From: Methanogenium sp. MK-MG
GTDB taxonomy: Archaea > Halobacteriota > Methanomicrobia > Methanomicrobiales > Methanomicrobiaceae
Assembly: GCF_009914725.1 (NCBI RefSeq)
Contig: NZ_JAAAWJ010000020.1
Coordinates: 1-32,240, forward strand
Direction of reading: 5' to 3'
Length of the DNA: 32,240 nt
The position numbers and the translations under genes are program-made. The notes below the pieces were generated by a model. The model was given only the letters and a program-made list of their open reading frames with translations. It did no database searches and had not been told where the DNA came from. The first letter of the stretch is position 1; every line of letters starts with the position of its first letter. Shown one piece after another: positions 3,643 to 26,951 of the stretch.

Positions 3643-4218
3643 ATGCTTCACTTCGAGAAAAAAGGCATCCGGATACTGGGAATCGCAGAGAGCTACCGCG
3701 GACGGGAACAGTCCCTCGTCTGTGGTATTGTCATGCGGCGGGACAGAATCATCGACGGCTGCACCTTCTCACATGCCACCGTCGGAGGCATGGACGCAAC
3801 AGACGCCGTCCTTGCCATATGGAACCGCCTTGCACGGGACGACATACAGGCCATCATGCTGGGTGGCACGGTCATCTCCTGGTTTAATGTCATCAACATC
3901 ATGCAGCTGCACCAACAGACAGGGCTTCCGGTCATATCGGTCACATATGAAGATTCACCCGGCCTTGAAGATGACATCAGCCACCACTTCCCCGGAGATG
4001 AGGAAAGACTTGCAGCATACCTCTCCTTAGGAAAAAGAAAGACCTGCCAGCTCTCAACAGGTGAGACCGTATATCTTCGTGCAGAAGGCATCTCCCTTGC
4101 AGATGCCGTCCATGCCTGCAATATCTTTACCGCTCAGGGAAAAATACCCGAACCCGTGCGTGTGGCACGTATCATTGCACGGGGTCTTCTGCCGGAAGAC
4201 CCCGACAGAGCGGATTAA
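3643..4218 (+). CDS. UPF0215 / DUF99 family protein (archaeal)
   Basis: MLHFEKKGIRILGIAESYRGREQSLVCGIVMRRDRIIDG...AIMLGGTVISWFNVINI...GLPVISV matches the conserved N-terminal core of archaeal UPF0215 proteins (..GIRVVGIDDSPF......LVGVVMRG...IDGV....ITVDG.D.T..I......AIMLDGIT..GFNIVDI.....TGLPVIVV), recalled from memory. Confidence 0.6.
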   Translation: MLHFEKKGIRILGIAESYRGREQSLVCGIVMRRDRIIDGCTFSHATVGGMDATDAVLAIWNRLARDDIQAIMLGGTVISWFNVINIMQLHQQTGLPVISVTYEDSPGLEDDISHHFPGDEERLAAYLSLGKRKTCQLSTGETVYLRAEGISLADAVHACNIFTAQGKIPEPVRVARIIARGLLPEDPDRAD

Positions 4219-4730
4219 AACTCAATACCCCTGCGGGCCCGCACACCGGCCGCATAGTAATGTTTTATCTTTTTCATCTCCGTGACAAGATCGGCTGCCT
4301 CAATTAATTCAGGTGGTGCATACCTTCCGGTGCAGATCACATCAACATGAGGAGCCCTGCCGGTGAGAGCGGCCATCACATCTGAGAGTTCAAATAGCCC
4401 GTAGTAGAGTGCCACGTTGATCTCATCCAGGACGACAAGGTCATACTCACCCGACCGGAGTATTTCAGCACAGACATCCAGCCCTTCTCTGGCAGCGATG
4501 ATGTCACTCTCTTCCGGCTGCCCCTCGATAAACCGCCCCTCCCCGTACTGTACAATAGTAAATTCCGGGAAATGCGACGGAAGAGAGAGCTCCCCTGTCT
4601 GCACCCCCTTGATGAACTGAGCGAAATACACCCGGTATCCGGCAACAAGAGACCGGACACTAACACCAAGAGCCGCCGTTGTCTTTCCTTTACCCTCTCC
4701 CGTGTAGACCTGAATATATCCCTGTTTCAT
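4215..4730 (-). CDS. cobA: Cob(I)yrinic acid a,c-diamide / cob(I)alamin adenosyltransferase (CobA/CobO/BtuR family)
   Basis: MKQGYIQVYTGEGKGKTTAALGVSVRSLVAGYRVYFAQFIKG...DLVVLDEINVALYYGL...ICTGRYAPPELIEAADLVTEMKKIKH carries the P-loop GEGKGKTTAA and the typical CobA/BtuR architecture. Its stop overlaps the convergent DUF99 gene stop by 4 nt. Confidence 0.85.
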   Translation of the reverse strand: MKQGYIQVYTGEGKGKTTAALGVSVRSLVAGYRVYFAQFIKGVQTGELSLPSHFPEFTIVQYGEGRFIEGQPEESDIIAAREGLDVCAEILRSGEYDLVVLDEINVALYYGLFELSDVMAALTGRAPHVDVICTGRYAPPELIEAADLVTEMKKIKHYYAAGVRARRGIEF

Positions 4731-5437: not shown

Positions 5438-5482
5438 TTAACGGCGTTAATTATATAATATGCAAGCCATTAACAGCGTTAA
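5438..5482. promoter_or_regulatory. Two copies of a 13-bp palindrome TTAACrGCGTTAA flanking the TATA-like box and start of the small wHTH regulator gene (candidate autoregulatory operator)
   Basis: TTAACGGCGTTAA (perfect palindrome), then TTATATAATATG, then about 10 nt further TTAACAGCGTTAA (one mismatch). Coordinates approximate. Confidence 0.45.
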
Positions 5483-5726
5483 CAAAGTGCGGCTCCCCCC
5501 ATCTTCCCAGCGGGTATTGGCTCTTCTGAAGGACGGACAGGCAAGGACATTCAAGCAGGTGACGCAGGAAATAGATATTTCACCACGAACGGTCAGGTAT
5601 GCAATAAAAAAACTAAAAGAGAGCGGACTTATCATCGAGAAATTCAACTTCAGAGACGCCCGTCAGGTTCTCTATCAGATCAAGGACGTACTGACTTCTG
5701 AAGAAACGCAGAAGGCAACTGCATGA
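5460..5726 (+). CDS. Small winged-helix transcriptional regulator (MarR/TrmB-like wHTH)
   Basis: 88 aa. SQRVLALLKDGQARTFKQVTQEIDISPRTVRYAIKKLKESGLI is a canonical wHTH. The start sits directly behind a TATA-like box and is flanked by two copies of a 13-bp palindrome (see regulatory feature). Its stop overlaps the next gene start (ATGA). Confidence 0.6.
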   Translation: MQAINSVNKVRLPPSSQRVLALLKDGQARTFKQVTQEIDISPRTVRYAIKKLKESGLIIEKFNFRDARQVLYQIKDVLTSEETQKATA

Positions 5727-6037
5727 AGCAGCCGTCCTGTGACATTTTGATTTGTGATGAGATGGTACGTCTGTATCTGCCACAGATACGGGCCGAAGTC
5801 GTATCCAGAATGGTAATCCAGAGAGGACTTACCCAGAAATGCGTTGCAGGATATATGGGCCTGACCCCTGCTGCCGTATCCCAGTATGTCAGCAGAAAAC
5901 GCGGATGCAAATGCATCGAAATATCAGAGGATCTTAATGCAGTAATTGACCGGTGGGCCTGGTCACTCATCAACGGTGACAGCAGTGTTACCATCTGTGA
6001 CATATGCAGATGCGTCCGGAGAGAACTTAAAGAATAA
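5723..6037 (+). CDS. Putative HTH DNA-binding protein with C-terminal Cys-rich (CxC...CxxCxC) motif
   Basis: 104 aa. Predicted HTH at RGLTQKCVAGYMGLTPAAVSQYVSRKRG. The C-terminus carries CKC and CDICRC, suggesting metal binding. Translationally coupled to the upstream regulator. Confidence 0.45.
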   Translation: MKQPSCDILICDEMVRLYLPQIRAEVVSRMVIQRGLTQKCVAGYMGLTPAAVSQYVSRKRGCKCIEISEDLNAVIDRWAWSLINGDSSVTICDICRCVRRELKE

Positions 6038-6164
6038 AGGTCCTTTTGACGACAATTATCCACTCAGGACATAACTGAATTCTGCAGCAAAAACACGATC
6101 AGACTCTTTTAAAAATAAGATTACAGACAAACAACACACCCGTCCGGTAATCGAATTAAATATC

Positions 6165-7010
6165 TTGTTTAACAATACACCTCTGAACATGAAGGACAAG
6201 TCTGCTGTAATATACACTGACGGCGCCTCGCGCGGGAATCCGGGAAGATCAGCGTGGGCCTACATTATACTGAATAATGGAATAATCGAAACAAGGAATT
6301 CAGGGTACTGTGCATATGCAACAAACAATCAGGCCGAATATTACGCAGTGATACATGCACTCTCAGATGCAGAAGAGCAGGGGTTCAGAAATATTCTTCT
6401 CTACTCCGACAGTCAGCTGATTATTCGTCAGCTCAGAGGTGAATACAAGGTCAGAGATCGCTGCCTGAGAGACCTGTATATGAAAACAATTGCAATCGTC
6501 AAAAAATTTGATTCGGTCTCTTTTGAAAATGTGCCGCGCTCAAATAAAAACATCAGCATCGCTGACAGGATGTGCAATGAGACGCTTGACAGGATGCAAA
6601 AGAGCGATACAACACCATTTGACGAAGATATCGTCAGCATACCAGAAATAAAGCTCAAACCTGTAGGAATTGTCAGATCACCCTATACAACGCCTGGTGA
6701 TGCACCCCGGCAGGGACAGCTTTCGGATCAGTTATCTGAGATTCATATATTCCCGGAATACAGGGATGCATTATACACAATTGAGCAATGCAGACAACTC
6801 GTTGTTCTCTGCTGGTTTGACAGGGCAGAACGTTCATTGCTCAGGGCAACACCACCGGGACAGACTGGAGAACGGGGTGTCTTTTCCATCAGGTCACCGG
6901 GACGCCCGAACCCCATTGCCCTTGAACTGGTCGATCTCGTTCAGATCAGTGGAACGGTCTTAACCGTCCGTGGACTGGATGCAATCGATAATACCCCGTT
7001 CTGGATATAA
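6165..7010 (+). CDS. Fusion protein: N-terminal type-1 RNase H (archaeal RNase HI-like) + C-terminal TsaA/YaeB (TrmO N-terminal, UPF0066)-like domain
   Basis: N-terminal domain: AVIYTDGASRGNPGRSAWAYII...NNQAEYYAVIHAL...LLYSDSQLIIRQLRGEYKV...FENVPRSNKNISIADRMCNE carries the RNase H catalytic motifs (DG..GNPG; E; D..l; D at the end). C-terminal domain: KPVGIVRSPYTTPGDAPRQGQL...IHIFPEYRDALYTIEQCRQLVVLCWFD...GVFSIRSPGRPNPIALELVDLVQISGTVLTVRGLDAIDNTPFWI aligns well with E. coli YaeB/TrmO residues 8-125 (IGVIRSPY...PRQPGL...RPNPIGMSLVEL...L.GLDLVDGTPV). Confidence 0.7.
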   Translation: MFNNTPLNMKDKSAVIYTDGASRGNPGRSAWAYIILNNGIIETRNSGYCAYATNNQAEYYAVIHALSDAEEQGFRNILLYSDSQLIIRQLRGEYKVRDRCLRDLYMKTIAIVKKFDSVSFENVPRSNKNISIADRMCNETLDRMQKSDTTPFDEDIVSIPEIKLKPVGIVRSPYTTPGDAPRQGQLSDQLSEIHIFPEYRDALYTIEQCRQLVVLCWFDRAERSLLRATPPGQTGERGVFSIRSPGRPNPIALELVDLVQISGTVLTVRGLDAIDNTPFWI

Positions 7011-7191
7011 AACCCTTCATCAACCCTGACAGGGTTCGGAATACAAAAACAGAATAAACCCGTGATGTTTCAGACATCATTTTAATGACAAAAAAATAAG
7101 CAAATATATCAGTCTGAGTATTGAGAACATATATAGATTTATGCAGGTCGAATGAAAGAAAATCATTCATGAATACAGTAAGGAGAATATT

Positions 7192-8088
7192 ATGACAGAA
7201 AATACCGAAAATTCAGAACAGGCATGCGATGGAAACTGTTCATCATGCGCAACCGCGTCCACGTGTACGGATCCAGAGAAGAAGACCAGTGGCATACAGC
7301 GGGTAGAGATCAGTGTAAAGCACATCATTCTCGTTCTTTCAGGCAAGGGAGGAGTTGGAAAGAGCACTGTCGCAACAAATCTCGCCATGTCACTTGCCAA
7401 TAAGGGATATGACACAGGGATTGTTGATCTTGACATTCACGGACCAAACATCCCTAAGATGCTGGGTATTGAAGACAAACGCCTTGAATCACGTGACGGA
7501 AAAACGATTGAACCAGTACGCCTCACAGGAAAACTCGGTGTCGTCTCAATGGCCTTTTTACTCCCGGACACCTCCAGCCCGGTTGTCTGGCGCGGTCCAA
7601 TGAAATTTACCGCAATCAAACAGTTCCTGGAAGATGTGAACTGGGGGGATATGGAATATCTCATCGTTGACCTCCCGCCCGGTACCGGTGATGAGGCACT
7701 TGCTATTGCACAGCTCGCGCCCAATATTGATGGTGCGGTCATTGTCACAACCCCACAGGATGTTGCCGTGATGGATTCGACAAAGGCTGTTAAATTCATT
7801 CAACAGCTTGATCTGCGTGTCATCGGTATCATTGAAAACATGAGCGGGATGGTCTGTCCGCACTGTGGTGATGAAATTGACCTCTTTGGAAAGGGAGGAG
7901 GCAAAAAAGCTGCAGAGGAACTGAAAGTACCGTACCTCGGTTCAATACCAATCGATCCTGAAATGCGCAAGGCAGGCGATGAGGGTCGGCCATTCATTCT
8001 CAGAAAAGCAGGGGATGAACAGCATCAGGCAACATGGGAAAAAGTTGATGCGGTAATGGACAACATTCTCAAAGAACTGAAAGAGTAA
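7192..8088 (+). CDS. Mrp/NBP35/ApbC-family Fe-S cluster carrier ATPase
   Basis: N-terminal Cys-rich stretch CDGNCSSCATASTC, deviant Walker A GKGGVGKST, ParA/MinD fold, and conserved CPHC (MVCPHCGDE). An AGGAGA Shine-Dalgarno sits 7 nt upstream of the ATG. Confidence 0.85.
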   Translation: MTENTENSEQACDGNCSSCATASTCTDPEKKTSGIQRVEISVKHIILVLSGKGGVGKSTVATNLAMSLANKGYDTGIVDLDIHGPNIPKMLGIEDKRLESRDGKTIEPVRLTGKLGVVSMAFLLPDTSSPVVWRGPMKFTAIKQFLEDVNWGDMEYLIVDLPPGTGDEALAIAQLAPNIDGAVIVTTPQDVAVMDSTKAVKFIQQLDLRVIGIIENMSGMVCPHCGDEIDLFGKGGGKKAAEELKVPYLGSIPIDPEMRKAGDEGRPFILRKAGDEQHQATWEKVDAVMDNILKELKE

Positions 8089-8092
8089 TACA

Positions 8093-8108
8093 TTTTTTTC
8101 TTTTTTTC
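8093..8108 (+). terminator. Oligo-T archaeal intrinsic terminator candidate downstream of Mrp gene
   Basis: TTTTTTCTTTTTTT run begins 5 nt after the stop codon. Confidence 0.4.
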
Positions 8109-8180
8109 CCCTGACACTGCAATGCGGATATTTATCAATATCAGAAACCAATAGCACCGTCAACAAAGGAGTAATATTTC

Positions 8181-8489
8181 ATGGACTATATCGGGATCAT
8201 TTCCGGAAATGGCGAGGTACTTGACATATACCAGATGATTATACCCTGTCTTGAAAATATTGAGATATTGCCCCAGTCAATTGAACCAATATACTATAAA
8301 GCCATTAAACTGGAAGGAGATGGACTGGACCATTTCCGATTCGGACTCGTGCGCCTTCAGGTGTATGCAGATATACACCGGTATGAAGACAGCGATGAGA
8401 TGCAGAAGATAAAGTATGCTGCACAGATCCTTGAAAAAATAATATTTGGGAATCTTATGCTTGAGACAGAAGCATTTGCATCAGAATGA
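8181..8489 (+). CDS. Hypothetical protein (102 aa)
   Basis: Good Shine-Dalgarno (AAAGGAGT) 8 nt upstream of the ATG. No recognisable domain. Possibly co-transcribed after the Mrp terminator candidate. Confidence 0.45.
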   Translation: MDYIGIISGNGEVLDIYQMIIPCLENIEILPQSIEPIYYKAIKLEGDGLDHFRFGLVRLQVYADIHRYEDSDEMQKIKYAAQILEKIIFGNLMLETEAFASE

Positions 8490-25727: not shown

Positions 25728-26330
25728 ATGGGAATTATAGACCGATTTCGAAGAAACCCAATTGGAAAATTAAAAATCTCTGAACTGCAGGAAGAAGAAT
25801 TCAAGCTGAAAAGCCGTATCAATCGACTTCGCAAAGAAATTGACCGGATTGAACGCGACAAAAAGGAAAAATTTGGAGAAGGTGTTGGAGCGGATCTCAT
25901 TAAAAAGAAGATGCTGGCACAGGAACTCAAGCAGATGGACATGGCGGCCAAACTCAAAATTCGCAACTTTATATCATTGCACAAGCAGTATATGTTCATC
26001 TCGAATCTTGTAGTGATCAAGAAATATCAGCGTGACCTCCAGAAGACACAGGTTTGGGAAAAGATTCAGGGAATTTCACCTGATGCTTTTGAAAGTTCAC
26101 TTATTCAGGTAAACCTTGCAGGCAAAGGATTCGAAAACGTTGTTGATGACCTGAACCAGATCTTCACGCTGGACATTGCAGATTCAGACAATGATCTTGA
26201 TGAATCCGAAAAGCAGATGTTTGAAATCTGGAGCAGTGTTGAGACAGGATCTCTTGACCTTGAAGAAGCAGGCGGACTCTTCTCCGTAGAAAAGGACCTT
26301 GAGAAGGCCATTGCAGAATCTGATAATTAA
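25728..26330 (+). CDS. ESCRT-III/Snf7-like protein (PspA/ESCRT-III superfamily), paralog 1
   Basis: 200 aa, predicted all-helical. Basic N-terminal half, acidic C-terminal half. MGIIDRFRRNP start. ADLIKKKMLAQELKQMD corresponds to the Snf7-family ALKRKKRYEKQLAQID helix. KKYQRDLQKTQVWEKIQGISPDAFESSL corresponds to AKAMKAAHDNMDIDKVDELMQDI. The acidic tail DIADSDNDLDESE corresponds to EEFDEDELMAELEE. Comparison is from memory of CHMP4/Snf7 and PspA sequences. Confidence 0.55.
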   Translation: MGIIDRFRRNPIGKLKISELQEEEFKLKSRINRLRKEIDRIERDKKEKFGEGVGADLIKKKMLAQELKQMDMAAKLKIRNFISLHKQYMFISNLVVIKKYQRDLQKTQVWEKIQGISPDAFESSLIQVNLAGKGFENVVDDLNQIFTLDIADSDNDLDESEKQMFEIWSSVETGSLDLEEAGGLFSVEKDLEKAIAESDN

Positions 26331-26348: not shown

Positions 26349-26951
26349 ATGAGTATCTTTTCCAGACTCCATGCAAGAAATCCTTTAGATTCGATGAAAC
26401 TGGGGGATCTAAGGAAGGCAGAAGCACAATTACGATATCAGATTCAGACTACCCTGAATGACAGATCAGCGATGGAGGAGCAGATTACTCTACTCTTTTC
26501 CGAGTCTCTGGCTATCGCTGATGATGTGGGAACAGCCATCTGTGCCATGCGGATACAGGCAATTTCAGAATCCTGGCAGTTAAAAGCCCAGACCTGTCTG
26601 AACCTTGAGCGGGATTTACAGGTGCTTTCGAATATGATTGCAATTAAAGAACAGGAGAAAACTCTTCAGCGCTCCGGTGTCTGGAAAAAGCTACAGAACA
26701 TTGACCCGGATACCCTGGAAGAATGGTTGGCAAAATCAAGTATCAGTACTGCAGGTCAAAGGGCCTTGGTAAACGAACTTTCTGAGATTACTTCTGAACA
26801 TATTTCGCAGTCCGGAACAGGTTCAGTTGATGAATCATACATCAGGTCTCTGATTTCTGAGATGCGGACGGGGAGTCTGTCTTCAGATTCTGCAGGTACA
26901 AAATTGTTCAGCAATTTGTCCTCAGAACAACTGGATGGATCATCCCATTGA
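26349..26951 (+). CDS. ESCRT-III/Snf7-like protein (PspA/ESCRT-III superfamily), diverged paralog 2
   Basis: Same length (200 aa) and organisation as the upstream gene. Shared blocks VWEKIQGISPDAFE/VWKKLQNIDPDTLEE, TGSLDLEEAGGLFS/TGSLSSDSAGTKLFS. N-terminus MSIFSRLHA resembles PspA/Vipp1 MGIFSRF. Starts 19 nt after paralog 1 with a GGAG Shine-Dalgarno. Confidence 0.45.
   Translation: MSIFSRLHARNPLDSMKLGDLRKAEAQLRYQIQTTLNDRSAMEEQITLLFSESLAIADDVGTAICAMRIQAISESWQLKAQTCLNLERDLQVLSNMIAIKEQEKTLQRSGVWKKLQNIDPDTLEEWLAKSSISTAGQRALVNELSEITSEHISQSGTGSVDESYIRSLISEMRTGSLSSDSAGTKLFSNLSSEQLDGSSH

Follow-up and report, generated by a model that had tools for sequence, protein, structure and literature searches.

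A Type-1 RNase H Joined to a TrmO_N-Type Barrel in Methanogenium sp. MK-MG and Other Methanomicrobiales

What does an archaeon produce when an RNase H and a member of a tRNA methyltransferase family share one gene, and do the two parts of such a protein act together? These questions are raised by an open reading frame (ORF) of Methanogenium sp. MK-MG that lies within a 32,240-nucleotide (nt) stretch of contig NZ_JAAAWJ010000020.1 (the window, meaning this whole stretch of DNA) and encodes a type-1 RNase H domain followed by a TsaA/TrmO-like domain. Both domains had been proposed to reside in one ORF by a sequence-only reading of the window, and this proposal is borne out by matches to Pfam and NCBIfam models. 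The observed two-domain architecture is correct, far beyond chance. The fusion combines two well-known domains in a new way, is limited to part of one archaeal order, and is carried in databases only under the automatic name 'TrmO'. The sequence-only reading also named no earlier description of a covalent fusion to RNase H, which agrees with the outcome of literature searches: no paper was found that combines TrmO, RNase H, and fusion, and a search on the family names UPF0066, TsaA, TrmO, and YaeB likewise yielded none on this fusion.

The fused gene and its range

The ORF is open without interruption on the plus strand from either TTG at position 6165 or ATG at position 6189 through position 7010, and its product is 100% identical to a Methanogenium sp. 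MK-MG protein (P0001) that is named 'TrmO' by NCBI. The principal features of the gene are as follows.

6189 (ATG) to 7010, plus strand: fusion ORF, 273 amino acids (aa) as sequenced (ORF list, Pfam, NCBIfam).
6154-6163, plus strand: conserved TATA-like box AATTAAATAT, about 30 nt before ATG 6189, a putative archaeal promoter.
6198-6593, plus strand: type-1 RNase H domain, aa 4-135, of the archaeal Halo/Sto type without basic protrusion (Pfam).
6219-6221, 6336-6338, 6408-6410, and 6564-6566, plus strand: the DEDD residues D11, E50, D74, and D126, respectively (ortholog alignment).
6594-6656, plus strand: inter-domain linker, aa 136-156 (alignment of 49 orthologs, model confidence).
6657-6998, plus strand: TrmO_N/UPF0066 (AF_0241-type) beta-barrel that binds S-adenosylmethionine (SAM, or AdoMet), aa 157-270 (Pfam, ortholog alignment to 2NV4).

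At aa 4-128, the Pfam models RVT_3 (58.6 bits, E 7.8e-16) and RNase_H (53.8 bits, E 3e-14) both score above their cut-offs, and TrmO_N (PF01980) matches aa 171-270 with 86 bits (E 2.4e-24). The NCBIfam equivalog model TIGR00104 'tRNA_TsaA' scores 129.1 bits against a cut-off of 93.25. The start of the gene had previously been placed at TTG 6165, and it is moved here to ATG 6189, where most of the orthologs examined begin with MKD or MKE; ortholog P0004, called from an upstream start, is an exception. A block of sequence, CGAATTAAATATCTT (6152-6166), is nearly invariant across four orthologous upstream regions that are otherwise divergent. TTG 6165 falls within this conserved block, two bases past the TATA-like box, and the gene start is therefore assigned to 6189. 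The block can be read as an archaeal TATA box, in which case the transcript would be leaderless or nearly so.

Both domains are found together in 49 clusters formed at 90% identity (P0001-P0050 minus P0022), at 39-84% identity. These clusters were drawn from NCBI, ENA, JGI, and Logan assemblies, with complete chromosomes of about 1.6-1.8 Mb among them. When one genome per species was scanned, fused genes were found in Methanogenium-like, Methanomicrobiaceae, Methanocalculus, and Methanocorpusculaceae lineages. Among 1.84 billion representatives of 50%-identity clusters, the fusion was found in just five (P0013, P0036, P0240, P0241, and P0244), which were the top-scoring two-domain candidates and were confirmed by Pfam. 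Other matches with multiple stretches might have extended the fusion beyond Methanomicrobiales; those checked by Pfam were tandem RNase H proteins (some with a SAP domain) or tandem TrmO_N proteins. Also, a Bathyarchaeota protein (L050) carries RNase H with an unassigned C-terminal region that is not TrmO_N. Two to three tandem copies of RNase HI are present in P0248, P0252, P0243, P0245, P0247, P0255, P0256, and P0260, and the triple-copy proteins P0248 and P0252 additionally have an N-terminal SAP domain.

Conservation among the 49 fused orthologs falls sharply between the two domains. Mean pairwise identity is 53% for RNase H and 59% for the barrel, and only 17% for the linker, which ranges from 14 to 36 aa and leaves the junction in frame in every ortholog. 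An internal start that would yield a separate TrmO_N protein was considered near this junction, as the sequence-only reading had advised, and was rejected: some methionine is present in the linker of 11 of the 49 orthologs, at positions that are not conserved, and no start is conserved there either. The same reading had feared that a frameshift or sequencing error joined two genes, and no such frameshift exists at the junction, given that the linker is common to all 49 orthologs. The probability that a frameshift or mis-assembly created the fusion in this contig is accordingly close to nil. Such an artifact might seem plausible given that the closest split relatives are separated by just 2 nt and that one indel does exist in the window gene. 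This indel is at the 3' end, away from the junction, and recurrence of an in-frame linker in 49 clusters from four sequence collections, complete chromosomes included, rules out joining by frameshift.

Relatives of the host show what the pair looks like when it is not fused. A hidden Markov model (HMM) scan of 85 loci identified fused genes in L006-L020, adjacent but split genes in L001-3 and L021-29, and RNase H alone in the rest. The locus from Methanoculleus taiwanensis has an RNase H gene (5561-5998, 145 aa) and a TrmO_N gene (6001-6456, 151 aa) that are 2 nt apart, with a GGAGGA-rich stretch ahead of the TrmO_N ATG, and seven further Methanoculleus-type loci have the same arrangement. The pair is apparently translationally coupled in Methanoculleus. 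Because the spacer is only 2 nt, a small indel would be enough to fuse or split the pair, making either event trivial. In Methanofollis, a Cas4-like PD-(D/E)xK gene sits between the RNase H and TrmO_N genes. The example in a Methanofollis metagenome-assembled genome (MAG), at L022:2840-3409, matches Pfam Cas_Cas4 and PDDEXK_1, and its stop overlaps the TrmO_N start.

More distant arrangements are also found. In MAG201 about 180 nt separate the two domains, which are in different reading frames, and in a Methanomicrobiales MAG (L004) the RNase H gene is followed directly by an Mrp-type ATPase gene, with no barrel gene between. The HMM scan found no TrmO_N within 4 kb of RNase HI in Methanolinea, Methanospirillum, Methanoregulaceae, DPANN, Asgard, or bacterial loci, and in Methanoregulaceae the orthologous barrel gene adjoins the V-ATPase operon. 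Thus, whether orthologs are fused or split, as the sequence-only reading had asked, has a mixed answer: they are fused in 49 clusters and split in Methanoculleus, Methanofollis, and MAG201. Rough neighbor-joining trees of the RNase H and barrel domains largely agree with one another and follow the organism clades, and therefore the pair has been co-inherited for a long time. These trees are compatible with one early fusion and two to three fissions, or with an adjacent pair that underwent three to four fusions.

The two halves of the protein

The catalytic signature of RNase HI that had been noted in the N-terminal half is indeed present in the window, and it is invariant in the fused orthologs. 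Residues D11, E50, D74, and D126, along with N46-N47 and R117, are invariant both in a set of 31 and in the full set of 49 fused orthologs, and T45 of the TNN motif is kept in at least 90%. The TNN and SDS motifs, conserved in fused orthologs, are taken here to be substrate contacts equivalent to E. coli T43/N45 and S71, and the invariant VPR arginine R117 is presumably the counterpart of Arg118 in Sto-RNase HI. Because these catalytic and substrate-contact motifs are invariant, the N-terminal half should be catalytically active, as a metal-dependent type-1 RNase H of the Halobacterium/Sulfolobus type. Members of this compact archaeal subtype have neither a basic protrusion nor a catalytic histidine (PMC9719913). 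The NCBIfam models for archaeal RNase HI score below their equivalog cut-offs (RnaseHI_Halo, 106.7 vs 300 bits; RNAseHI_Thmprot, 83.9 vs 140 bits), and the RNase HI assignment holds at the family level only.

The structure of the fusion was modeled with AlphaFold2 on the 49-sequence alignment, using the intact Methanogenium-lineage ortholog P0003 as the target. The model has a mean predicted local distance difference test (pLDDT) score of 80 and a predicted template modeling score of 0.54, with a confident RNase H domain and a moderately confident barrel. Linker residues 141-154 fall below a pLDDT of 50 and are predicted to be disordered, and the model shows no confident packing of one domain against the other. 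The low-confidence loops of the barrel may be those that are ordered by dimerization and SAM binding in crystals. A Foldseek search of the PDB with the N-terminal half returned Halobacterium RNase H1 (4E19; template modeling (TM) score 0.94, root-mean-square deviation 0.9 Å), the mycobacterial RNase HI domain (3HST; TM 0.92), and 3ALY (TM 0.86). Sequence matches to the first two reach 75.6 and 68.5 bits, respectively, placing 3HST among the closest solved relatives as well. The C-terminal half returned 2NV4 (TM 0.78, 53% identity over 129 aligned columns), and no PDB entry matched by Foldseek spans both halves of the model.

The 2NV4 entry is AF_0241, to which P0003 aligns without gaps over 124 residues (phmmer, 146 bits, E 1.3e-41). 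The known AdoMet ligands are Q22, R82, D111, and K122 in AF_0241 and Q25, R92, D125, and K136 in E. coli TrmO (PMC4132733), and the alignment places the four AF_0241 residues at Q175, R235, D264, and K275 of the fusion. The first three of these putative ligands are present in the window ORF. Among the 49 fused orthologs, R235 and the RPNP motif are invariant and Q175 and K275 are kept in at least 90%, while most aligned orthologs have Asp at position 264 and several sequences of the Methanocorpusculum lineage have Glu there. Two motifs had been quoted slightly differently by the sequence-only reading: RPNPIG and DGTP are RPNPIA and DNTP in the window. The lysine is of special importance, as K122 of AF_0241 extends into the AdoMet site of the partner subunit, and the K136A mutation abolishes formation of N6-methyl-N6-threonylcarbamoyladenosine (m6t6A) by E. 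coli TrmO (PMC4132733).

Should this barrel be called TrmO? The NCBI name was assigned because the TIGR00104 score exceeds its cut-off, and it says nothing on function. No Pfam match to TrmO_C (the DPRxxY domain) exists in the window product, and fused orthologs end no more than about 15 residues (mostly 8-13) past the DIKP motif. The DPRxxY C-terminal domain, which is proposed to bind tRNA in bacterial TrmO, is required for m6t6A formation in E. coli; it is found in no archaeal YaeB, archaeal tRNA has never been seen to contain m6t6A, and the discoverers of TrmO suggest that archaeal YaeB methylates some other target (PMC4132733). In Methanosarcina acetivorans, the isobaric nucleoside is N6-hydroxynorvalylcarbamoyladenosine (hn6A), not m6t6A (PMC10702137). 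Because the domain is absent both here and in archaeal homologs, and because the product is undetected in archaeal tRNA, it is doubtful that the name TrmO is justified. The sequence-only reading was therefore right about the TrmO_N domain, and its identification of the C-terminal half with the m6t6A methyltransferase is in doubt.

The protein might nevertheless be a bona fide tRNA m6t6A37 methyltransferase with an RNase H attached, as its equivalog score (129 bits over a cut-off of 93) and the four AdoMet ligands conserved in orthologs would suggest. This is very improbable. The fusion has no TrmO_C domain, mutating the DPRxxY motif abolishes m6t6A formation in E. coli (PMC4132733), the modification has gone undetected in archaeal tRNA as described above, and the window copy as sequenced has lost the essential lysine. 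Since the C-terminal domain needed for the reaction at t6A37 (t6A, N6-threonylcarbamoyladenosine) is missing, the substrate of the barrel half is probably something else. The automatic name creates two annotation problems, in that it spreads to proteins without the domain required for TrmO activity and omits the RNase H half.

Barrels of this type are also numerous and varied in their partners. The sequence-only reading held that stand-alone TsaA-like proteins are common in methanogens, in line with the seven TsaA-like paralogs of Methanoculleus marisnigri (Kimura 2014; PMC4132733). AF_0241-like TrmO_N domains are fused elsewhere to FmdE with a DksA/TraR-type zinc finger, to DUF4198, or to themselves as tandem duplicates (P0259, P0316, P0242, and P0272). 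Such arrangements suggest that some archaeal TrmO_N paralogs do not act on RNA.

The 3' end and surroundings of the window copy

The Methanogenium gene differs from its orthologs by a one-base deletion near its 3' end, defined by two features.

6994-6999, plus strand: 1-nt deletion site, with G missing after G6998 (CCCCG^T), from a DNA alignment with three orthologous loci.
6998-7057, plus strand: displaced intact C-terminal tail VLDIKPFINPDRVRNTKTE followed by a stop (next-frame translation), holding DIKP and the lysine equivalent to AF_0241 K122 and E. coli K136.

The three orthologous loci read ACCCCGGTTCTGG, and the window reads ACCCC-GTTCTGG. The resulting shift of frame leads to a premature stop at 7008-7010, such that the product ends in DNTPFWI and the last 19 residues, including the DIKP lysine, are swapped for FWI. 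The DIKP residues (D273, I274, K275, and P276) are each kept in at least 90% of the 49 fused orthologs; K275 is absent from the window ORF as sequenced and is encoded in the shifted frame. The stop codon of the displaced tail aligns with that of the closest long contig (L090). A repaired product would have 289 aa, equal to P0003, compared with the 273 aa of the window protein and the 276-315 aa (mostly 277-298 aa) of orthologs. Also missing from the window copy as sequenced is the final beta-strand of the model (residues 270-276). Because the deletion removes both this strand and the essential lysine, the barrel half of this copy as sequenced is probably inactive, with the RNase H half left intact.

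No decay was seen in the displaced tail, and at least eight neighboring gene lengths match those of the relative L090 exactly. A very recent deletion and a sequencing error are roughly equally probable. Programmed frameshifting at 6994-6999 was also considered and rejected: the bases ACC CCG TTC form no slippery heptamer, and the tail is in frame in 30 of 30 aligned orthologs, for which reasons mutation or sequencing error is preferred. The 273-aa protein at NCBI carries no flag as disrupted.

The genes that surround the fusion offer little guidance. Directly upstream (5460-6037) are two small overlapping genes, for an 88-aa winged helix-turn-helix protein and a 104-aa protein without a Pfam family, and this pair occupies the same position in the closest relatives (L090-L093). 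Downstream (7192-8489) are genes for a 298-aa P-loop ATPase of the Mrp/NUBPL iron-transfer type and for a 102-aa protein without a family. The order of RNase H, Mrp, and a gene for about 100 aa is kept across Methanomicrobiales, and because it exists even where TrmO_N is lacking (L004), flanking synteny is uninformative on the function of the barrel. Elsewhere in the window (3643-4730), a gene for Endo_dU (PF01949, plus strand) converges with one for a cobA/BtuR corrinoid adenosyltransferase (minus strand), and their 3' ends overlap by 4 nt. Two adjacent 200-aa ORFs at 25728-26330 and 26349-26951 (plus strand) look like a tandem duplicate.

Autonomous or coupled halves, and known systems

With a probability slightly better than even, the fusion is a lineage-restricted bifunctional polypeptide, in which two largely autonomous enzymes ended up on one chain when a translationally coupled gene pair fused. 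The N-terminal half would be a metal-dependent type-1 RNase H and the C-terminal half a class VIII AdoMet-binding barrel consisting of TrmO_N only, joined by a disordered linker. The pair would have begun as adjacent, coupled genes, as they still appear to be in Methanoculleus, and would have been fused by a small indel. Solved homologs of the barrel are homodimers in which a lysine from the partner subunit completes each AdoMet site (PMC4132733). The barrel would make the protein dimeric, and the dimer, with two RNase H heads, would be a bivalent RNase H.

Autonomy of the halves is favored by several observations. The RNase H retains its catalytic site, the linker between the halves varies greatly and is predicted to be disordered, and close relatives tolerate partners that are separate, separated further, or missing. 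The 2-nt spacer makes fusion and fission trivial, and both families fuse with varied partners: this RNase HI subfamily with NUDIX (P0171) and YrdC, and TrmO_N with FmdE and DUF4198 (see also PMC2954224). There is also a precedent in the mycobacterial RNase HI-CobC protein, whose domains are functionally dissociated in vivo, whose linker is variable, and whose fixation has been attributed to drift (PMC7466739).

Other considerations weigh against two independent enzymes. Linkage, whether fused or adjacent, has survived divergence at the family level (39-45% identity), and purifying selection acts on both domains; this exceeds what a transient accident would leave and may point to co-regulation or to a common substrate. 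An independent fusion joins this RNase HI subfamily to the t6A-pathway protein YrdC/TsaC, beside Cgi121, in a Nitrososphaerota clade. Given that TrmO_N belongs to a t6A methyltransferase family, the YrdC fusion is a suggestive coincidence. Furthermore, archaeal TrmO_N proteins have no RNA-binding domain, and an RNase H fold could supply one.

These considerations lead to a second, functionally coupled possibility, which is conceivable and distinctly less probable: the RNase H fold binds or targets nucleic acid for the SAM-dependent barrel, which would modify duplex RNA or RNA:DNA hybrid (tRNA, primers, or R-loops), with possible cleavage. The linkage across at least three Methanomicrobiales families and the congruent domain trees are consistent with this proposal. 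Bacterial TrmO needs an extra domain, the proposed tRNA binder, that is absent from archaeal homologs (PMC4132733), and a related RNase HI from Sulfolobus tokodaii also cleaves double-stranded RNA (PMC9719913). The independent RNase H-YrdC fusion, whose gene adjoins that of the KEOPS subunit Cgi121, points in the same direction. If the fold served for binding alone, loss of its catalytic residues would be expected, whereas DEDD is invariant. Moreover, close relatives tolerate having the two halves split, apart, or alone, no confident packing between domains is predicted across the hypervariable, disordered linker, and the other TrmO_N partners (FmdE and DUF4198) are not RNA-related.

The RNase H-YrdC/TsaC proteins are found at L088:6001-7047 and L089:371-1417 and in P0118 and P0121-P0127 (eight clusters, 55-100% identity). 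Their locus adjoins Cgi121 and is near ribosomal-protein genes and a gene for a KsgA-type (RrnaAD) rRNA methyltransferase. A general neighborhood of RNase HI and t6A genes was sought with the YrdC HMM over 93 loci and was rejected, as the only matches were L088 and L089, which are two copies of the fusion itself. Because YrdC matches are confined to these loci, the link between RNase HI and t6A genes is weak, and the restriction of the RNase H-YrdC fusion to one small clade likewise counts against coupling. The coupled RNA/DNA-hybrid or tRNA processing activity at which the sequence-only reading had hinted is not supported, considering that the halves are split or unlinked in relatives, the linker is disordered, and both families fuse with unrelated enzymes.

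A bolder idea is that A37/t6A enzymes have acquired the compact archaeal RNase HI fold on at least two independent occasions as a means of docking duplex RNA or tRNA, once for TrmO_N in Methanomicrobiales and once for TsaC/YrdC in the Nitrososphaerota clade. This is a long shot. If true, the fusion would give a first hold on the substrate of archaeal YaeB/TrmO_N, pointing to tRNA or to RNA in RNA:DNA hybrids. Members of this archaeal family bind AdoMet, are highly conserved (53% identity between P0003 and AF_0241), and have multiplied in methanogens, yet m6t6A, which they are supposed to make, has not been found in archaea. Fusion or adjacency with RNase H offers a modest, testable lead, namely a nucleic-acid substrate, and natural fused, split, and truncated variants are on hand for comparison. 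If the domains are independent, as is judged more likely, the protein is one more drift-fixed fusion of co-transcribed genes, with limited wider consequence.

Each half can be compared with characterized systems. The barrel is most like AF_0241 (2NV4), with which it shares an ungapped alignment, four AdoMet ligand positions that are largely conserved in orthologs, and the absence of the TrmO C-terminal domain. AF_0241 is a stand-alone protein of 147 aa, whereas the fusion has RNase H and a linker ahead of the barrel, and in the window copy the K122 equivalent is lost by frameshift. E. coli and human TrmO (YaeB and TRMO) have the same PF01980 N-terminal beta-barrel and the same AdoMet-binding residues. 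Unlike them, the fusion lacks the DPRxxY domain, and its extra domain is an N-terminal nuclease.

The other half parallels the RNases H of Halobacterium sp. NRC-1 (RNase H1, 4E19) and Sulfolobus tokodaii (RNase HI, 2EHG/3ALY) in its compact fold, DEDD residues, and lack of both basic protrusion and catalytic histidine. The fusion does not have the N-terminal extension of the Halobacterium enzyme, and it differs from archaeal type-1 RNases H in bearing a C-terminal SAM-binding barrel. As a two-enzyme chain, it resembles mycobacterial Rv2228c/MSMEG_4305 (RnhC), which also begins with an RVT_3-type RNase HI, has a variable linker, and is lineage-restricted, but in that case the partner has the CobC histidine-phosphatase fold and the hosts are bacteria. 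Similarly, the Nitrososphaerota RNase H-YrdC/TsaC proteins begin with an RNase HI from this subfamily in which DEDD is invariant, and they have a partner family linked to t6A37 and a narrow clade of hosts. They differ in that their partner has the threonylcarbamoyl-AMP synthase fold, in their confinement to only eight clusters, and in their position beside Cgi121 and ribosomal-protein genes.

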